Assembly: GCA_016235055.1 (NCBI GenBank)
Contig: JACRMK010000066.1
Location: 3,728 to 67,727 of the forward strand
Reading direction: 5' to 3'
Origin: Chloroflexota bacterium
GTDB taxonomy: Bacteria; Chloroflexota; Anaerolineae; JACRMK01
Length of the DNA: 64,000 bases
In this document: piece after piece, positions 5,328 through 49,260 of the stretch
How positions within the stretch are numbered: position 1 is the first letter of the stretch
Layout: every line of letters begins with the position of its first letter
Translations under genes and position numbers: made by a program
The notes under the pieces: model-generated
Told to the model about the DNA's origin: nothing
What the model saw: only the letters and a program-made list of their open reading frames with translations
The model's database searches: none

Positions 5328-5401
5328 GCGCCCGTAGCTCAGTTGGATAGAGCGTTGGGTTGCGGACCCAAAGGCCACAGATTCGAGTTCTGTCGGGCGC
5401 A
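5328..5401 (+). tRNA. tRNA-Arg. Anticodon loop reads TTGCGGA, so the anticodon is GCG; this needs tRNAscan confirmation.
   Basis: It is 74 nt with a perfect 7-bp acceptor stem GCGCCCG/CGGGCGC, a D-arm GCTCAGTTGGATAGAGC (Arg-like), an anticodon stem TTGGG/CCCAA, and a T-arm ACAGA-TTCGAGT-TCTGT. There is no encoded CCA. Confidence 0.8.
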
Positions 5402-18757: not shown

Positions 18758-20209
18758 ATGCCCCCCACCCGCACCCTCATCAAGGCTTCCCACATCATCG
18801 CCTATGACGGCAAGCGCCACCGCCACCTCAAGGACGGCGTCGTCGTGATCGAAGGCGACCGCATCATCCACGTCGGCAAAACGTGGACCGGCGCCGCCGA
18901 CGTGACGATCGACGCCGCCGGCCGCGTGGTGACGCCCGGCATGATCAACACACACACGCACCTGAGCGAGTCGCCGCTCGATCGCTCGCTCGTCGAGGAC
19001 ACCGGCAAGCGCAACTTCTACAACAGCGCACTATTCGATATGCTGCCCGGCCGCAGCGGAGCCGAGGACGAGGAGATGATGCAGATCTGCCTCGACTTCT
19101 CGTTCGCCGAACTCTTGCAGACCGGCACGACGACCGTCGTCGAGATGGGGCCAAAGGACCTGTACGACTACACCGCCGACACCGCCGCGCGCTACGGCGT
19201 CCGCGTTTACGTCGGCATGGGCTACCGTTCCGGCCGCTGGTACAGCGACGACGGCAAGGCGGTCAAGTATGAGTGGAACGAAGCGCAAGGCATACGCGAC
19301 ATGGACGACGGCGTCGCGTGGCTGGAGAAGAACCACGGCACGCGCGGCGGCCTGGTCAACGCCCTGCTGGCCCCGCGCCAGGTGGACACCTGCTCGGCAG
19401 CGCTGCTCAAGCGCACGCGCGAGGCGGCCAACCGGCTGAAGGCGCCGGTCACCCTGCACACCTCGCAGTCAGTGGTCGAGTTCCAGGAGATGATCCGCCG
19501 CAACGGCTGCACGCCGATCGAGTGGCTGCGCGACATCGGCTTCCTCGGCCCGGATGTATTGCTCGGCCATGCCATTATCATCAGCGGCCATTCGTGGGCC
19601 AACTACGCCGGCGACGACCTCGGCATCATGGCGTCAACCGGCGTGTCGGTCGCGCACGCGCCCTGGGTGTTCGTGCGGCGCGGCGTGACGATGGAGTCGT
19701 TCTATAAGTACATGCAGGCCGGCATCAACATGACGCTCGGCACCGACAGCGCGCCGCAGAACATGATCGAGTCGCTGCGCTACGCCAGCATCTTCGCCAA
19801 GCTGATCGAGCGGCAGACCGAGATCATGCGCGCCTCACACGTCTTCGACGCGGCGACGCTGGGCGGCGCGCGGGCGCTCGGCCGCGACGACCTCGGGCGG
19901 ATCGCCCCCGGCGCGAAGGCCGACCTGCTGATCTGGGAGGGCGCGAGCCACTCGATGGCCCCGCTGCGCGACCCGATCCGCAACATCGTCTATAATTCAC
20001 AGGCAAGCGACATCCGCACCACGATCGTCAATGGCCGCGTCGTCATGCATGACGGCGTGGTGGTCGGCGCGCCGGACATGCGGGCGCTGGCGCAGCGCAT
20101 GCAGGCTGCCGGCGAGCGCATGTGGCCGGCGATGCAGAAGGGCGACTGGGGCCACCGCACCGTCGACCAGATGTCGCCGATGAGCTACGCTGAGTGGGAC
20201 GGCGCGTGA
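18758..20209 (+). CDS. amidohydrolase-superfamily metal-dependent hydrolase (chlorohydrolase/aminohydrolase TRZ/ATZ-like)
   Basis: INTHTHLSESP (HxH metal site), a later HTSQS motif, and a C-terminal composite β-sandwich domain. The start ATG at 18758 is preceded by GAAAGGAA. Confidence 0.8.
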   Translation: MPPTRTLIKASHIIAYDGKRHRHLKDGVVVIEGDRIIHVGKTWTGAADVTIDAAGRVVTPGMINTHTHLSESPLDRSLVEDTGKRNFYNSALFDMLPGRSGAEDEEMMQICLDFSFAELLQTGTTTVVEMGPKDLYDYTADTAARYGVRVYVGMGYRSGRWYSDDGKAVKYEWNEAQGIRDMDDGVAWLEKNHGTRGGLVNALLAPRQVDTCSAALLKRTREAANRLKAPVTLHTSQSVVEFQEMIRRNGCTPIEWLRDIGFLGPDVLLGHAIIISGHSWANYAGDDLGIMASTGVSVAHAPWVFVRRGVTMESFYKYMQAGINMTLGTDSAPQNMIESLRYASIFAKLIERQTEIMRASHVFDAATLGGARALGRDDLGRIAPGAKADLLIWEGASHSMAPLRDPIRNIVYNSQASDIRTTIVNGRVVMHDGVVVGAPDMRALAQRMQAAGERMWPAMQKGDWGHRTVDQMSPMSYAEWDGA

Positions 20210-20210
20210 C

Positions 20211-20490
20211 AAGATGACACGATGACAAGATGACAAGATGACCGGATGACAAGGCGCCTTGGTGACAGGGTGACACAAGAGATCACAGAGTCGCCAGTCC
20301 AATGGCTTGTCATCCTGAGCGCGAAGGCAAGACGCTGTGCTTTTGGGGCGGTGCGCGCGCGAAGGATCTCGAATCTGTGATCTAATGTGACTAGGTGAGC
20401 ATCAGGCTATCGCTGGCGCCCCGTTTCTTGACGGGCATCGTCACCTTGTCATCCTGTCATCCTGTCATCTTGTCTTCTTGTCATTCTCTC
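20211..20490. repeat. composite intergenic element: long imperfect inverted repeats of GATGACAA/GG units flanking one GTCATCCTGAGCGCGAAGGC…GCGCGCGAAGGATCTCGAATCTG module
   Basis: The left arm at ~20211-20285 is the reverse complement of the right arm at ~20441-20487. The core module is at 20309-20378. All of this is seen directly. Confidence 0.6.
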
Positions 20491-26562: not shown

Positions 26563-26780
26563 TCTACCGCAGAGGACGCGGAGAACGCAGAAAAGGGGCT
26601 AGCATTGTCGTAACGCGTGCGCGCCTGAAAAGGGTTGTCATGCTGAGCGCGGAGGCAAGACCGGCGGCGTACAACCCGCCGGTGGCGCGAAGCATCTTGT
26701 ATGCCGCAATTCAGATGCTTCGCGCGTGAGGCGTGCCATAGGCCGATCGTGCGACCTTCGCGTTCAGCATGACATTTCTA
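26563..26780. repeat. palindromic copy of the GTCATCCTGAGCG-type module family (variant GTCATGCTGAGCGCGGAGGC … GCGCGAAGCATCTTG … CAGATGCTTCGCGC … inverted partial copy)
   Basis: A purine-rich half-arm CCGCAGAGGACGCGGAGAACGCAGAAAAGG precedes it. An inverted partial copy ATGTCATGCTGAACGCGAAGG lies ~120 bp downstream. Confidence 0.5.
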
Positions 26781-35129: not shown

Positions 35130-35370
35130 CGCCATCCTGAGCGTGAAGGCAGCACCGCGACTTTCAGCCGCGTCACGCGCGCGAAGGAGCCGAGCACCAC
35201 GCGCCGGGTTGTCATCCTGAGCGCGAAAGCAGCACGACACACTTACCAACACGCCATGCGCGCGAAGGACCTAAAATCGTCGCAGTCAAGCACCACACTG
35301 AGTAGAACTGGTTTGCAGCCATGCGCAGCTACTACGTCTACATCATGACCAACCCGCCGCGCGCCATCGT
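35130..35370. repeat. two tandem partial copies of the mini-element end. The second copy includes the GIY-YIG 5' UTR and the first ~17 codons.
   Basis: Module copies start at 35130 and 35211. A stub ATGCGCAGCTACTACGTCTACATCATGACCAACCCGCCG at 35321 diverges at the next module. Confidence 0.6.
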
Positions 35371-35878
35371 GTCATCCTGAGCGCGAAGGCAACACCTTGT
35401 TTTACACATCCGCCACGCGCGCGAAGGACCTAAAATCTTCTCAGCCAAGCACCACACTGAGTAGAATTAGCTTGCAGCCATGCGCAACTACTACGTCTAC
35501 ATTATGACCAACCCGCCGCATACGACGCTGTATGTTGGTATGACGAACGACCTGAAGCGCCGGATCAGCGAGCACAAGGGCAAACTCATCAAGGGTTATA
35601 CGAACGCGTACAACGCGACCTACCTGGTTCACTACGAGATTGCCGAGGACGCTGCAACGGCGATCGCGCGCGAGAAACAGATCAAAAGGTGGCTGCGAGC
35701 AAAGAAGATCGCCCTGATCGAATCGAACAATCCGGAGTGGAAGGATTTGAGCGTCGAGTGGCTGGACGATGAAGGCTGAGCCCGTTACGGGAAGATTCGG
35801 CCATTCGCAGATTTCAGGTCCTTCGCGCGCGAGGCGTTCTTGAACGGCAGCGCGTTGCCTTCGCGCTCAGGATGACAG
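35371..35878. mobile_element. ~510-bp mini-element: ~65-75-bp terminal inverted repeats (GTCATCCTGAGCGCGAAGGC-N27-CGCGCGAAGGACCTAAAATC) flanking a GIY-YIG nuclease gene
   Basis: The left end is at 35371-35445. The right end at ~35815-35878 is its reverse complement, with a different 27-nt internal segment. Confidence 0.55.
35480..35779 (+). CDS. GIY-YIG nuclease family protein (COG2827/YhbQ-like URI domain, ~99 aa)
   Basis: YYVYIMTNPPHTTLYVGMTNDLKRRISEH is the GIY…YIG…R…E signature. Confidence 0.85.
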   Translation: MRNYYVYIMTNPPHTTLYVGMTNDLKRRISEHKGKLIKGYTNAYNATYLVHYEIAEDAATAIAREKQIKRWLRAKKIALIESNNPEWKDLSVEWLDDEG

Positions 35879-35953
35879 GTTGGTGATTCGCGCAACCTTA
35901 CAATCACCCATGTCGCATAGCCATCAATCGAAGAATACACAAGGAACACTTCC

Positions 35954-36914: not shown

Positions 36915-37208
36915 ATGCGGATTATTGCACGCAGGACATTGCGTGAATTCTGGCAACGACACTCGGCCGCCGAACAGCCATTGCGCGCCTGGTATGCGCA
37001 GGTGCGCAGCGCCGTCTGGCGCACGCCCGCGGACGTGAAAAATGACTACCGCAATGCCAGCCTGCTGGCTAATCAGCGCGTCATATTTAATATCAAGGGA
37101 AACAGCTACCGCCTGGTTACCATGCTCAATTACCAGCATGGCATCGTGTTTATTCGGTTTATTGGCACCCATGCCGATTATGACCGGATTGATGCAGGCA
37201 AGATTTGA
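36915..37208 (+). CDS. higB: type II toxin HigB (RelE/ParE superfamily, HigB_toxin family)
   Basis: …VIFNIKGNSYRLVTMLNYQHGIVFIRFIGTHADYDRID matches the HigB family consensus. The start is frame-consistent. Confidence 0.8.
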   Translation: MRIIARRTLREFWQRHSAAEQPLRAWYAQVRSAVWRTPADVKNDYRNASLLANQRVIFNIKGNSYRLVTMLNYQHGIVFIRFIGTHADYDRIDAGKI

Positions 37209-37214
37209 GGCCGT

Positions 37215-37586
37215 ATGACAGTGAAAATTCACCCGATCCGCGATGAGGCAGACTACGATGCTGCTCTGCACGCCATTGAGACGCTGTGGGACGCCGCACC
37301 CGGGACACCGCGCGGCGACGCGCTTGATGTGCTGACGACACTGGTCGCGGTATATGAAGATGAGCATCATCCGGTGCCACCGCCCGATCCGATCGAAGCG
37401 ATCCAGCACTATCTGGAAAGCCGGGGCCTGACGCGCCGCGATCTCGAGCCATATTTTGGCTCGCGCGCGCGCGTATCGGAAGTGCTGGCGCGCCGCCGGC
37501 GGCTGACGTTGCCCATGATTCGCCGGCTGAAACGGGGACTCGGCATCCCGGCCGACGTCCTGATACAGCCATACGATCTGCGCTGA
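37215..37586 (+). CDS. higA: HigA-family HTH antitoxin
   Basis: …DPIEAIQHYLESRGLTRRDLEPYFGSRARVSEVLARRRRLTLPMIRRLKRGLGIPADVL gives the XRE-type HTH. It lies 6 nt downstream of higB. Confidence 0.8.
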   Translation: MTVKIHPIRDEADYDAALHAIETLWDAAPGTPRGDALDVLTTLVAVYEDEHHPVPPPDPIEAIQHYLESRGLTRRDLEPYFGSRARVSEVLARRRRLTLPMIRRLKRGLGIPADVLIQPYDLR

Positions 37587-48871: not shown

Positions 48872-49260
48872 AGCCTGTCATTCTGAGAATATCCATACGG
48901 CCCCACGGTATGCGATGCGGCAGAAACTTAAGCATGGCCTATGCGAGTCGTCATTCCGGCGAAAGCCGGAATCCAGGCGCGCGCATCACGGCCTGTAAGC
49001 GCGCCAGATGTCGGCGTGGATGCCGGCTAACGACATGCCGGCATGACGAATTGGAGTGTGCGATCATGCCCTCAGTGGCGATGAAGTTTCTGAGCAGCGC
49101 AAAAGCATGGCCTCCTGAATCCGGTGCACTTCGCGCGCGAAGGATCTCGAATCTGCAACGGCCATGGCATCTCCGCACCTCGCTGCGCCACAATCGAGAT
49201 GCTTCGCGCATGAAACACACCTGATTCTCTCTGTGCCTCCGTGCCTCTGTGGTTTGCGCT
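48870..49260. repeat. ~390-bp block of degenerate GTCAT(T/C)C(T/C)GAG / CGCGCGAAGGATCTCGAATCTG / GATGCTTCGCGC modules
   Basis: GTCATTCTGAGAAT…, GTCGTCATTCCGGCGAAAGCCGGAATCC, an inverted CACTCCAATTCGTCATGCC, and CTTCGCGCGCGAAGGATCTCGAATCTGCAACGG (near-identical to 20351-20378). Confidence 0.5.

Follow-up and report, generated by a model that had tools for sequence, protein, structure and literature searches.

Short palindromic repeats are among the commonest unexplained features of bacterial genomes, and the REP/RAYT pair is, to our knowledge, the only case in which such repeats have an assigned enzyme. REP hairpins carry an unpaired tag at one end (GTAG or CGTC), lie as inverted copies on both sides of the gene for the enzyme, an HUH/Y1 (IS200/IS605-like) tyrosine transposase, and also occur as doublets and clusters. 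The enzyme gene is typically inherited vertically and under selection, and published accounts describe RAYT genes as typically single-copy (PMC5581495; bioRxiv 10.1101/2022.05.22.493013).

The second system for comparison is the dRS3 repeat of Neisseria (ATTCCCN8GGGAAT), for which about 200 copies have been counted in N. gonorrhoeae and as many as 700 in N. meningitidis (PMC9778887). The repeat is the integration site of Nf phages, which use their own IS110/Piv-type transposase for this, and the NIMEs have been described as Neisseria-specific and ascribed to a recombinase of unknown identity or to a phage transposase (PMC1797815). Recombination of antigen genes and rearrangement of the chromosome have been linked to dRS3/NIME arrays, with no recombinase firmly identified (PMC1797815, PMC9778887). 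On the enzyme side, stand-alone prokaryotic GIY-YIG proteins have no assigned substrate, and the 2006 classification by Dunin-Horkawicz does not mention palindromes. Our literature searches found no work linking the GIY-YIG family to repeats, and no published link between dRS3/NIME and a GIY-YIG gene.

Here we analyse a GIY-YIG gene in a 64-kb stretch of Chloroflexota DNA, hereafter the window. In our reading, with a probability of roughly 0.6, positions 35131-35876 are one copy of a widespread small hairpin-gene-hairpin unit of which we found no description. The unit consists of a GIY-YIG nuclease gene, free-standing, Slx1-like and about 100 codons long, with hairpin modules at both sides.

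Results

The GIY-YIG gene

The gene (Table 1) encodes a protein that matches the Pfam GIY-YIG profile (PF01541, E=7.5e-17) with 61.9 bits against a cutoff of 22.6, which places it in the GIY-YIG superfamily. An alignment of 25 diverse members shows no variation at Y7, Y18, R27/R28, E65 and N84 and hardly any at H32 (at least 90% conserved), and the catalytic constellation Tyr (GIY), Tyr (YIG), Arg, His, Glu, Asn is present in that order. The predicted fold is beta-beta-alpha-beta-alpha-alpha. The structure model (pLDDT 83) had 1zg2 as its top Foldseek match (E=1.9e-4, TM about 0.56-0.59), and the nearest folds were, in order, UPF0213 (1zg2, 1ywl), the structure-specific nuclease Slx1 and the N-domain of UvrC. 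The protein shares with UPF0213 (BH0048, EF2693), or the 'Slx1-like' group, a minimal GIY-YIG domain free of accessory domains, but is only weakly similar to these two proteins in sequence (phmmer E=0.0066 and 0.11) and has a C-terminal helix conserved within its own subfamily, KKIALIExxNPxWxDL. The GIY-YIG core and one helix account for all 99 residues, leaving no further DNA-binding domain. No NCBIfam equivalog was found for the protein, and the Pfam search returned no Y1_Tnp match.

The window holds one copy of the gene, and an orthologous locus (L009) holds it at the same position. Judged by the dN/dS of 0.089 between the two (dS about 0.84), the window gene is intact and kept by purifying selection. 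Because an ortholog at this distance keeps the same position, the gene is not recently mobile at this locus, and the unit has, on comparative grounds, probably been inherited vertically in this window. The sigma-70-like promoter match upstream of the gene lies in an insert of ~35 nt that is absent from the ortholog, and no T-run terminators were found.

Table 1. Features of the locus and of the gene-less modules, in window coordinates (., no single strand).
Feature	Position	Strand	Remarks
Solo module	20309..20377	+	no GIY-YIG gene; basal stem perfect (ATCCT/AGGAT)
Gene-less doublet	26637..26773	.	two inverted modules, ATGCT/AGCAT stems
Module A, oldest left-end hairpin module	35131..35195	+	degenerate head GCCAT; nhmmer E=1.6e-15
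Module B, second direct left-end copy	35211..35278	+	GTCATCCTGAGCGCGAAAGC...CGCGCGAAGGACCTAAAATC
Truncated element head	35279..35370	+	copy of 5' UTR including promoter-like insert, ATG 35321, 13 clean + 4 diverged codons
Module C, functional left end	35371..35438	+	inverted-repeat match, module searches, folding
Sigma-70-like promoter match TTCTCA-18-TAGAAT	35438..35467	+	inside ~35-nt insert
GIY-YIG nuclease gene	35480..35779	+	99 aa; PF01541; alignment residues; dN/dS 0.089
Module D, right end, inverted copy	35808..35876	-	orthologous to right module of L009
GTCAT hairpin cluster	48950..49234	.	other stems at 48950-48972 (+) and 49020-49047 (-)
Degenerate module pair in cluster	49096..49155 and 49190..49234	+ and -	module searches

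Modules and the gene stub

A preliminary description of this DNA had placed the gene between inverted ends, with two more direct copies of the left end upstream, and both observations hold. The inverted arms (35364-35438 and 35809-35883) are 75 nt long and 80% complementary, modules of ~68 nt bracket the gene, and modules A and B are the additional left ends. The loop of module A aligns with the single left module of the ortholog, to which module A is orthologous. For module C, the predicted stem pairs ATCCT-GA-GCGCG with CGCGC-GA-AGGAC around a variable loop of ~35 nt. The 20-mer head of the module occurs seven times in the window at up to three mismatches, versus 0.01 expected from shuffles, and the second box five times, versus 0.00 expected. 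TRF detected no tandem array in the region.

The partial self-duplication repeats 35402-35519 as 35243-35360, with 89% identity over 118 nt and an offset of 159. From its ATG, the duplicated stub codes for MRSYYVYIMTNPP, which is identical to the gene product except for one residue, followed by four diverged codons (RAIV). It then runs straight into GTCATCC and stops exactly at the GTCAT of module C, which bears out the abrupt switch back into the repeat noted earlier. The copied 5' UTR is likewise as described, but of the ~17 codons first assigned to the stub, a nominal figure, only 13 are clean.

The same account saw in this arrangement a mobile unit that had re-inserted beside itself. Homologs do gain and lose the unit as a block (below), but at the window locus the gene has the same position in the ortholog at dS about 0.84. 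Re-insertion next to itself is plausible, with a comparable tandem deleted copy in S. meliloti, but a search of about 120 loci by a motif from the N-terminal peptide recovered a 5' gene stub in the window only. The upstream self-duplication may instead derive from a tandem copy that a deletion has shortened. Module A, and module B with the gene stub, are most readily taken as two truncated heads, the remnants of tandem copies cut back by deletion or aborted repair synthesis.

We found no clean empty site for the window locus. Orthologs of the cyclase with 75-80% identity lie in rearranged surroundings, with different genes upstream (methyltransferase or MFS), or at a contig end. The adjacency of gene and cyclase in a Caldilineales relative was dismissed as coincidence, the two cyclases being only 25% identical. 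Identical proteins were never seen in more than one genomic context, and recent transposition of the gene is thus undocumented.

Gene-less modules in the window

Modules that lack the GIY-YIG gene occur at three further sites of the window (Table 1), which the preliminary description had missed. The doublet has the same bounds as the element with the gene missing, and folds at -49.1 kcal/mol (z=-6.9). In the cluster, differently stemmed GTCAT hairpins span 48950-49047, and the one at 48950 (GTCATTCCGGCGAAAGCCGGAAT) resembles dRS3 in design only. Stems covary between the ATCCT/AGGA and the ATGCT/AGCAT modules of the window. The minimum-energy folds of the window modules show the predicted basal stem, and single modules are no more stable than GC-rich shuffles (z between -1.4 and +0.4), so that the hairpin is supported by covariation and not by energy. 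A metagenome scan with the head 20-mer of the window yielded 20 loci, about half of them chance matches in coding sequence (VILSAKA), and none of the 20 had a GIY-YIG gene near the 20-mer.

Hairpins around homologs in other phyla

We compared 80 loci of homologs from more than 15 phyla. TGTCAY was present within 150 nt upstream of the gene in 52 of 77 loci (68%) and RTGACA downstream in 57 of 79 (72%), each against 5% of background windows, an enrichment of about 14-fold in a motif test free of any hairpin definition. Strictly defined hairpins stood upstream on the plus strand at 45 of 78 loci and downstream on the minus strand at 61 of 80, where a background of 0.094 per kb predicts fewer than one locus. 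Proteobacterial homologs are framed likewise. The gene and its inverted ends, proposed as a unit from the one locus, do form a real unit, and homologs from over 15 phyla are arranged alike.

The homologs are distributed patchily, with 50-68% identity across phyla, and their hosts include Chloroflexota, Cyanobacteriota, Bacteroidota, clostridial lineages, Planctomycetota, Acidobacteriota, Patescibacteria and Pseudomonadota. The gene usually occurs once or twice per replicon (one copy each in the N. gonorrhoeae and Aeromonas records, two places in Sinorhizobium). A phage origin was rejected, as only 10 weak loci were found in viral contigs, mostly at contig ends; a defence system was rejected as well, since the PADLOC matches, to the GIY motif only, were marginal. 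In metagenomes, assemblies break at the hairpins, which also give rise to spurious ORFs such as those with C-terminal '...SLRSG' tails.

Regarding structure, 216 of 349 GTCAYNNNGA sites were followed within 100 nt by their own GA and complementary 5-mer, compared with a mean of 7.3 and a maximum of 14 in a control that swapped stem types. At least seven stem types covary, and flanks that the search did not impose are conserved: 82% have T at -1, and in 96% the stem is followed by C. Covariation across these sites establishes that the predicted hairpin is conserved as a structure; its stems covary, it contains a tandem GA/GA mismatch, and its unpaired flanks are invariant. The tags (T|GTC-A...) point outward relative to the gene, and this orientation is conserved. 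The left and right hairpins of a gene often differ in their stems, so that any sequence-specific recognition would need to depend on tag and shape. Hairpin-only derivatives take the form of solo modules, inverted doublets and arrays of alternating orientation (+/- 68, -/+ 57, +/+ 20, -/- 18). In Rfam 15, no relevant family was found in the window (gathering threshold) or the region (E up to 10), nor in 22 related loci (gathering, E up to 5 or E up to 1).

Presence and absence of the unit in relatives

The variation between relatives that the preliminary description had suggested looking for concerns the whole block. In A. lipoferum 4B the order is sufB-[doublet-GIY-doublet]-sufC, and in four relatives only a short hairpin-free spacer stands at this place; the boundaries in Azospirillum are blurred by about 25 nt, and no other hairpin lies in the 100 kb around the 4B insertion. 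Shinella carries an insertion between sufB and sufC relative to S. meliloti, whose limits coincide to within a few nt with GTCAT and ATGAC. The empty sufB-sufC sites of Azospirillum and Sinorhizobium are free of hairpins, which means that gene and hairpins arrived together. These comparisons show that intergenic DNA gains or loses the unit as one block. No target-site duplication was visible at the Shinella and Azospirillum junctions.

In a 4.9-Mb Aeromonas record, the sole copy of the 30-nt hairpin that we searched for adjoins the gene. Degraded copies exist as well: one is pseudogenised (L030), and in S. meliloti a full unit stands in tandem with a copy that an internal deletion has reduced to a hairpin, the last 24 codons and a second hairpin; this copy was spotted by eye and not by the N-terminal peptide screen.

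The Neisseria homolog

Neisseria species share one conserved homolog of 94 aa at ftsY-pilC, embedded in dRS3/NIME arrays. In the Neisseria loci examined, dRS3 is preceded by GTC and followed by C, and the identical hairpin flanks homologs in Aeromonas and Photobacterium; loci of all three genera fit the dRS3/NIME definition, a 20-bp inverted repeat on either side of RS spacers in arrays. The window modules share the tagged-hairpin design, the alternating arrays being a further likeness, but fall outside that definition, having ATCCT/ATGCT stems and long variable loops of ~35 nt.

Discussion

By analogy, the arrangement is most likely a REP/RAYT-like partnership built on a GIY-YIG nuclease. As in REP/RAYT, hairpins with an unpaired tag at one end (here TGTC) flank the enzyme gene as inverted copies and are also dispersed as doublets and clusters, and the gene, usually in one or two copies per replicon, appears to be vertically inherited and under selection, so that the parallel drawn in the preliminary description is sound as an analogy of design, not as homology. 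That account had also taken a single gene copy as evidence against a mobile unit; this is a poor refutation of mobility, because RAYT genes are typically single-copy (PMC5581495; bioRxiv 10.1101/2022.05.22.493013). The differences are that a hydrolytic nuclease of ~100 aa takes the place of the HUH/Y1 transposase, that the host range is much wider, and that some genomes appear to carry the hairpins only beside the gene.

Two other classes of element were compared as well. Free-standing homing endonucleases (Seg, I-TevI class) are likewise selfish nuclease genes, present or absent between collinear genomes, as are the sufB-sufC homologs, and their spread, too, would depend on break repair. Unlike them, the unit is flanked by structured repeats and not by a conserved host-gene target, its protein lacks a sequence-specific DNA-binding domain in addition to the nuclease, and the family is rare in viral contigs (the 10 loci mentioned above). 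MITEs and TIR transposons share the terminal inverted repeats and the internally deleted, gene-less derivatives (26637-26773; S. meliloti), but the unit has neither a DDE transposase nor a visible target-site duplication, and its ends are the hairpins themselves, often unlike in stem sequence.

How such a unit might spread can be outlined. The nuclease would recognise the tagged hairpin, as a cruciform or as single-stranded DNA, and nick or cut beside the tag. As the enzyme is not of the HUH/Y1 type, the covalent cut-and-rejoin chemistry of RAYT and IS200/IS605 would be unavailable to it. GIY-YIG enzymes only hydrolyse DNA and form no covalent intermediate, so that copying would be left to host recombination or repair. 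Another hairpin-bounded copy could then serve as the template in a homing-like process guided by the short homology of the hairpins, which would spread the gene-carrying unit and, in trans, its gene-less derivatives, with mosaic arrays piling up beside existing hairpins.

In its broadest form, which we advance tentatively and at slightly less than even odds, the GIY-YIG family would be the missing enzyme of pan-bacterial GTC-tagged hairpin repeats. These would include dRS3/NIME of Neisseria and the unassigned small dispersed repeats that flank homologs in rhizobia, cyanobacteria, Chloroflexota and many uncultured phyla. The result would be a second, HUH-independent version of the REP/RAYT lifestyle: the nuclease, hydrolytic and structure-specific, would cut at tagged hairpins and leave it to host repair to copy the cassettes between them.

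The alternative that survives best, although we regard it as unlikely, is that other machinery (an IS110/Piv-type recombinase, replication slippage or recombination) spreads the hairpins and that the GIY-YIG gene is a selfish passenger, either a homing endonuclease targeting the arrays or merely tolerated. Many hairpins are indeed far from any GIY-YIG gene (the three window sites and the 20 metagenome stretches), the Nf phages use dRS3 with a transposase of their own (PMC1797815), and GIY-YIG enzymes are classical homing endonucleases, to which the protein has weak matches (TIGR01453 and PHROG homing endonucleases). A passenger landing at random in an array, however, would not be expected to have conserved outward tags, and the protein consists of the nuclease core with no other DNA-binding domain. 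The empty sufB-sufC sites also lack hairpins, the 100 kb in A. lipoferum yielded no hairpin away from the unit, and in the Aeromonas record the 30-nt hairpin searched for lies only beside the gene.

Nearly as well placed, and likewise improbable, is a host-serving structure-specific nuclease that processes repeat hairpins or cruciforms, protecting replication or promoting recombination; such a gene would be fixed and no longer mobile, and the repeats would be substrates or regulators instead of ends. Strong purifying selection with stable synteny, the single conserved locus across Neisseria species, the Slx1-like fold and the proposal that NIME arrays promote recombination of neighbouring genes (PMC1797815) all fit this. 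Block presence or absence between close relatives, even in the suf operon, is nevertheless typical of selfish insertion, and the patchy distribution among phyla at 50-68% identity and the pseudogenised and internally deleted copies point the same way.

That the hairpins act as RNA, giving the GIY-YIG mRNA a cis-regulatory 5' leader and, at its 3' end, a stabiliser or terminator, seems very unlikely, even though the hairpin closest upstream usually lies in sense orientation 3-30 nt ahead of the start codon and the one downstream adjoins or overlaps the stop codon. A 2017 survey by Weinberg reportedly proposed a cis-regulatory role for a 'COG2827 RNA motif' found upstream of such genes; the main text of that survey (PMC5737381) gives no confirmation of it. 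The downstream copy lies on the opposite strand and would yield RNA with UC/UC in place of the conserved GA/GA, and in the window the promoter-like site is between the hairpin and the ATG. The missing T-run terminators and Rfam matches also argue against RNA function, as do the same hairpins in gene-less sites, in both orientations and in long alternating arrays. Finally, a coincidence of generic intergenic repeats beside an unrelated small gene, the alternative named in the preliminary description, is effectively refuted: the module is a dispersed repeat in this genome, but the ~14-fold enrichment, the strict hairpins at 45 and 61 loci with fewer than one expected, the lineage-specific stems in more than 15 phyla and the gain of gene and hairpins as a block speak against it.

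Taken together, the comparative evidence points to a second enzyme-repeat partnership, with a nuclease of a different superfamily and a far wider host range than REP/RAYT. The association of hairpin and gene appears to be new, as judged from Rfam and the literature searched. The unit measures about 480 bp, which is unusually little for a candidate autonomous mobile element. The partnership offers a concrete candidate for the origin and dynamics of the Neisseria dRS3/NIME arrays, and, if true, it would assign a substrate to a large annotation family, the 'GIY-YIG nuclease family protein' entries, which comprise 8,767 clusters at 50% identity.

Anatomy of the GIY-YIG locus

The GIY-YIG gene is the only one that tblastn finds in the whole 64 kb, and the G+C content at its locus (0.52–0.61) is below the ~0.70 of its neighbours. 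Annotation assigns its protein product to a Chloroflexi MAG. As the preliminary description had stated, the gene is bracketed by inverted ends, which a repeat finder recovered as 75-nt arms with 80% complementarity, and two more direct copies of the left arm (modules A and B) lie upstream. The second copy was also said to carry the 5′ UTR and gene start before an abrupt return to the repeat, and this corresponds to a direct repeat of 118 nt with 89% identity: module B is followed 3′ by the 5′ UTR copy, an ATG at 35321, MRSYYVYIMTNPP and four diverged codons, which run into the GTCATCC of module C. The truncated heads in this stack (A, B plus stub, C) each stop exactly at the next GTCAT. The head 20-mer matched seven times in the window against 0.01 expected, and the second box five times against 0 expected.

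Features of the window (profile, found with a profile built from known module copies)
Feature	Position	Strand	Remark
tRNA gene	5328-5401		only Rfam match in the window at gathering score
Tag stutter (GATGACAA)n	20207-20277		left of solo module
Solo module	20309-20377		profile; no GIY-YIG gene
Tag stutter (TTGTCATC)n	20440-20487		right of solo module
Inverted doublet	26637-26704 / 26706-26773	+ / -	profile; gene-less
Isochorismatase-family gene	end 35122		upstream neighbour
Module A	35131-35195
Module B	35211-35278
Direct repeat	35243-35360 / 35402-35519
Inverted arms	35364-35438 / 35809-35883
Module C	35371-35438
GIY-YIG gene	35480-35779	+	99 aa; Pfam GIY-YIG E=7.5e-17
Module D	35808-35876	-
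Cyclase-family gene	start 35954		downstream neighbour
HigB and probable HigA-type genes	36915-37586
Short hairpins	48950-48972 and 49020-49047		other stems; both begin GTCAT
Degenerate module pair	49096-49155 / 49190-49234	+ / -	profile

The suggestion that the unit had recently re-inserted beside itself was not established. An 85%-identical protein (locus L009) holds the same isochorismatase-cyclase position with a single left module, an inverted module on the right, a further module downstream and no upstream stubs; modules A and D, including their loops, are orthologous to the left and right modules of L009. The two genes differ with dS=0.84 and dN/dS=0.089, indicating that the gene has long held its position under selection. 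The loops of modules B and C differ from each other and from that of A, and the stack is therefore not fully accounted for by a simple tandem duplication of recent date. A 35-nt promoter-like insert (TTCTCA-18-TAGAAT) is common to the B and C copies and absent from L009.

The stutters around the solo module, 8-nt tandem repeats of the tag (the unpaired T|GTC at the hairpin head), are in inverted orientation and occupy an intergenic spacer; "tag plus half-stem" stutters of a comparable kind are present in Planktothrix (L122, period 23 nt) and at homolog loci L012, L063, L013 and L070. Such stutters might have been left by rounds of cutting and repair at the tag. Directly downstream of the cyclase gene, a low-GC patch holds the gene of a HigB toxin (PF09907, E=3e-31), followed by an ORF without a Pfam match that probably encodes a HigA-type antitoxin.

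Hairpin structure and covariation

Two boxes covary in the window: GTCATCCT modules have GAAGGA(C/T), and GTCATGCT modules have GAAGCAT. The module fits a basal stem, 5′-ATCCT-GA-GCGCG / CGCGC-GA-AGGAT-3′, with a tandem GA/GA mismatch and a variable loop of ~35 nt, and the predicted stem was recovered in minimum-energy DNA folds. The doublet fold reached -49 kcal/mol (z=-6.9). Single modules did not exceed shuffled versions of their GC-rich sequence in stability (z -1.4 to +0.4), and the evidence for the hairpin is therefore comparative, across genomes, rather than energetic.

In a covariation test that did not presuppose pairing and sought a partner within 100 nt, 216 of the 349 GTCAYNNNGA sites had their own complementary partner, versus an average of 7.3 when stems were swapped between instances, and the stem table was diagonal for ATTCT, ATCCT, ATGCT, ATTCC, ATCCC, ACCCT and ATTTC. 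The 352 unique hairpins (median length 25 nt) alternate in orientation when adjacent and are conserved at positions that were not imposed (T before GTC, 82%; C after the stem, 96%). The window modules, which no Rfam family matches, are a long-loop version of this general tagged-hairpin design.

Association of hairpins and gene across phyla

Homologs were scanned with one genome per species, giving >590 loci. The best 80, with 48–68% protein identity to the window's protein, come from Chloroflexota, Cyanobacteriota, Bacteroidota, clostridial lineages, Planctomycetota, Acidobacteriota, Verrucomicrobiota, Nitrospinota, Patescibacteria, several candidate phyla and Pseudomonadota, and nearly all of their flanks visibly carry "tgtcat..." upstream and "...atgaca" downstream. 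Within 150 nt, the hexamers alone (TGTCAY up, RTGACA down) were present in 52/77 upstream and 57/79 downstream flanks, against 5% of background windows. Under a strict hairpin definition, hairpins within 200 nt were found upstream (+) in 45/78 and downstream (-) in 61/80 (background, 0.094 per kb). The nearest hairpin, for which a background is not applicable, was + in 41 and - in 12 cases upstream, and - in 46 and + in 16 downstream. Upstream hairpins mostly end 3–30 nt ahead of the start codon, and downstream ones frequently overlap the stop codon. A Caldilineales gene (66% identical) has flanking modules with ATGCT stems, and its number of downstream doublets varies between samples. This broad comparative evidence supports the reading of a nuclease gene with hairpin ends, apparently akin to the REP/RAYT partnership.

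C-terminal tails ...SLRSG and ...SLRSE, common in predicted proteins (P0004, P0029 and P0072 of alignment A1; many database matches), are the reading frame running on into the inverted hairpin. Many homologs lie on ~1 kb contigs, which suggests that the hairpin repeats break assemblies. Decayed copies include that at L030 (10001-10270), with an in-frame stop, and that of N. gonorrhoeae 2022NG-0032 (L121, 1489-1503), which lacks the MQPA start of other Neisseria. The Planktothrix plasmid unit (L122) has an MmeI-type restriction-modification gene on one side and DISARM drmA on the other, and another unit (L039) adjoins a 30-repeat CRISPR-like array (RF01347, below gathering threshold).

Gain, loss and copy number of the unit

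Comparison of homologous loci showed that the unit is gained or lost as a block. In Azospirillum lipoferum 4B the sufB-sufC spacer holds the gene, flanked on either side by an inverted doublet, and the surrounding 100 kb has no other such hairpin. The sufB/sufC coding flanks are 90–97% identical in A. ramasamyi, A. oryzae, strain B510 and A. brasilense, where the spacer of ~35–130 nt has no hairpin. In Shinella sp. PSBB067 the sufB-sufC spacer is occupied by another member of the family, framed by single hairpins; alignment to the S. meliloti spacer places the insertion start ~7 nt past the sufB stop, and GTCAT and ATGAC bound the insertion to within a few nt.

Besides the Azospirillum lipoferum and Shinella units, this spacer hosts other independent small insertions (L126, L132, H48, H54 for the whole set): in Sphingomonas parapaucimobilis the insert is a DUF559 (Vsr-like) gene, in Paracoccus a heavy-metal-binding-domain gene. 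The spacer may be a hot spot for insertion, or simply permissive.

S. meliloti CP090106.1 (L124, 4660-4818) carries an internally deleted unit, consisting of a hairpin, ~15 nt, the last 24 codons and an inverted hairpin, in tandem immediately upstream of an intact unit. This provides a route by which gene-less doublets can arise and comes closest to the truncated heads of the window.

The family comprises 8,767 cluster representatives at E<=1e-10 and is rare in viral contigs. The N. gonorrhoeae (~2.2 Mb) and Aeromonas (4.9 Mb) records have one gene copy each, Sinorhizobium has the gene in two places, and identical proteins always had one genomic context across samples. In the Aeromonas caviae record, the searched 30-nt hairpin matches at a single place, 60 nt upstream of the gene. 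This pattern of copy number and context is closer to that of RAYT genes than of insertion sequences.

Relation to dRS3 and NIME

The Neisseria homolog (94 aa, MQPAVYILASQRNG...) is kept in N. meningitidis, N. gonorrhoeae, N. polysaccharea, N. dentiae, N. musculi and Bergeriella. In N. meningitidis it has a single locus, with an SRP54-family gene (presumably ftsY) on one side and a PilY1-domain gene (presumably pilC) on the other. Strain Z2491 has six dRS3 repeats within ~600 nt each side, the first downstream one 3 nt from the stop codon. Since GTC precedes all of them, dRS3 (ATTCCCN8GGGAAT) is itself a tagged hairpin of this design.

The identical hairpin GTCATTCCCGCGCAGGCGGGAAT flanks the Aeromonas and Photobacterium homologs, and in Photobacterium sp. 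GJ3 (L128, 5450-7618) seven inverted doublets of it, with a period of ~320–360 nt, form a NIME-like array beside the homolog. Arrays of this type had been described as Neisseria-specific. Bentley et al. did not observe them outside Neisseria and suggested that a dRS3-specific recombinase, yet to be identified, acts on them, naming a phage transposase as candidate (PMC1797815); a 2022 survey still did not name the enzyme (PMC9778887).

The protein and a possible mechanism

In the alignment, Y7, Y18, R27/R28, E65 and N84 are invariant and H32 nearly so. The AlphaFold model (pLDDT 83) matched best UPF0213 BH0048, then several Slx1 structures, including branched-DNA complexes, and then the UvrC N-domain. 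Slx1 is a structure-specific nuclease, and GIY-YIG enzymes hydrolyse DNA without a covalent intermediate. Dunin-Horkawicz et al. grouped stand-alone prokaryotic GIY-YIG domains with Slx1 and did not mention repeats; in open-access papers and bioRxiv we did not find the gene-repeat association, and an earlier description elsewhere is possible.

For cleavage and copying, we infer that the nuclease would recognise the tagged hairpin, as single-stranded DNA or a cruciform, and cut near the tag, and that host recombination would then copy hairpin-bounded cassettes, with the hairpins as short homology. Such cutting and copying would explain the mosaic alternating arrays, the insertions landing beside existing hairpins, the internally deleted S. 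meliloti copy and the A / B-plus-stub / C stack of the window.
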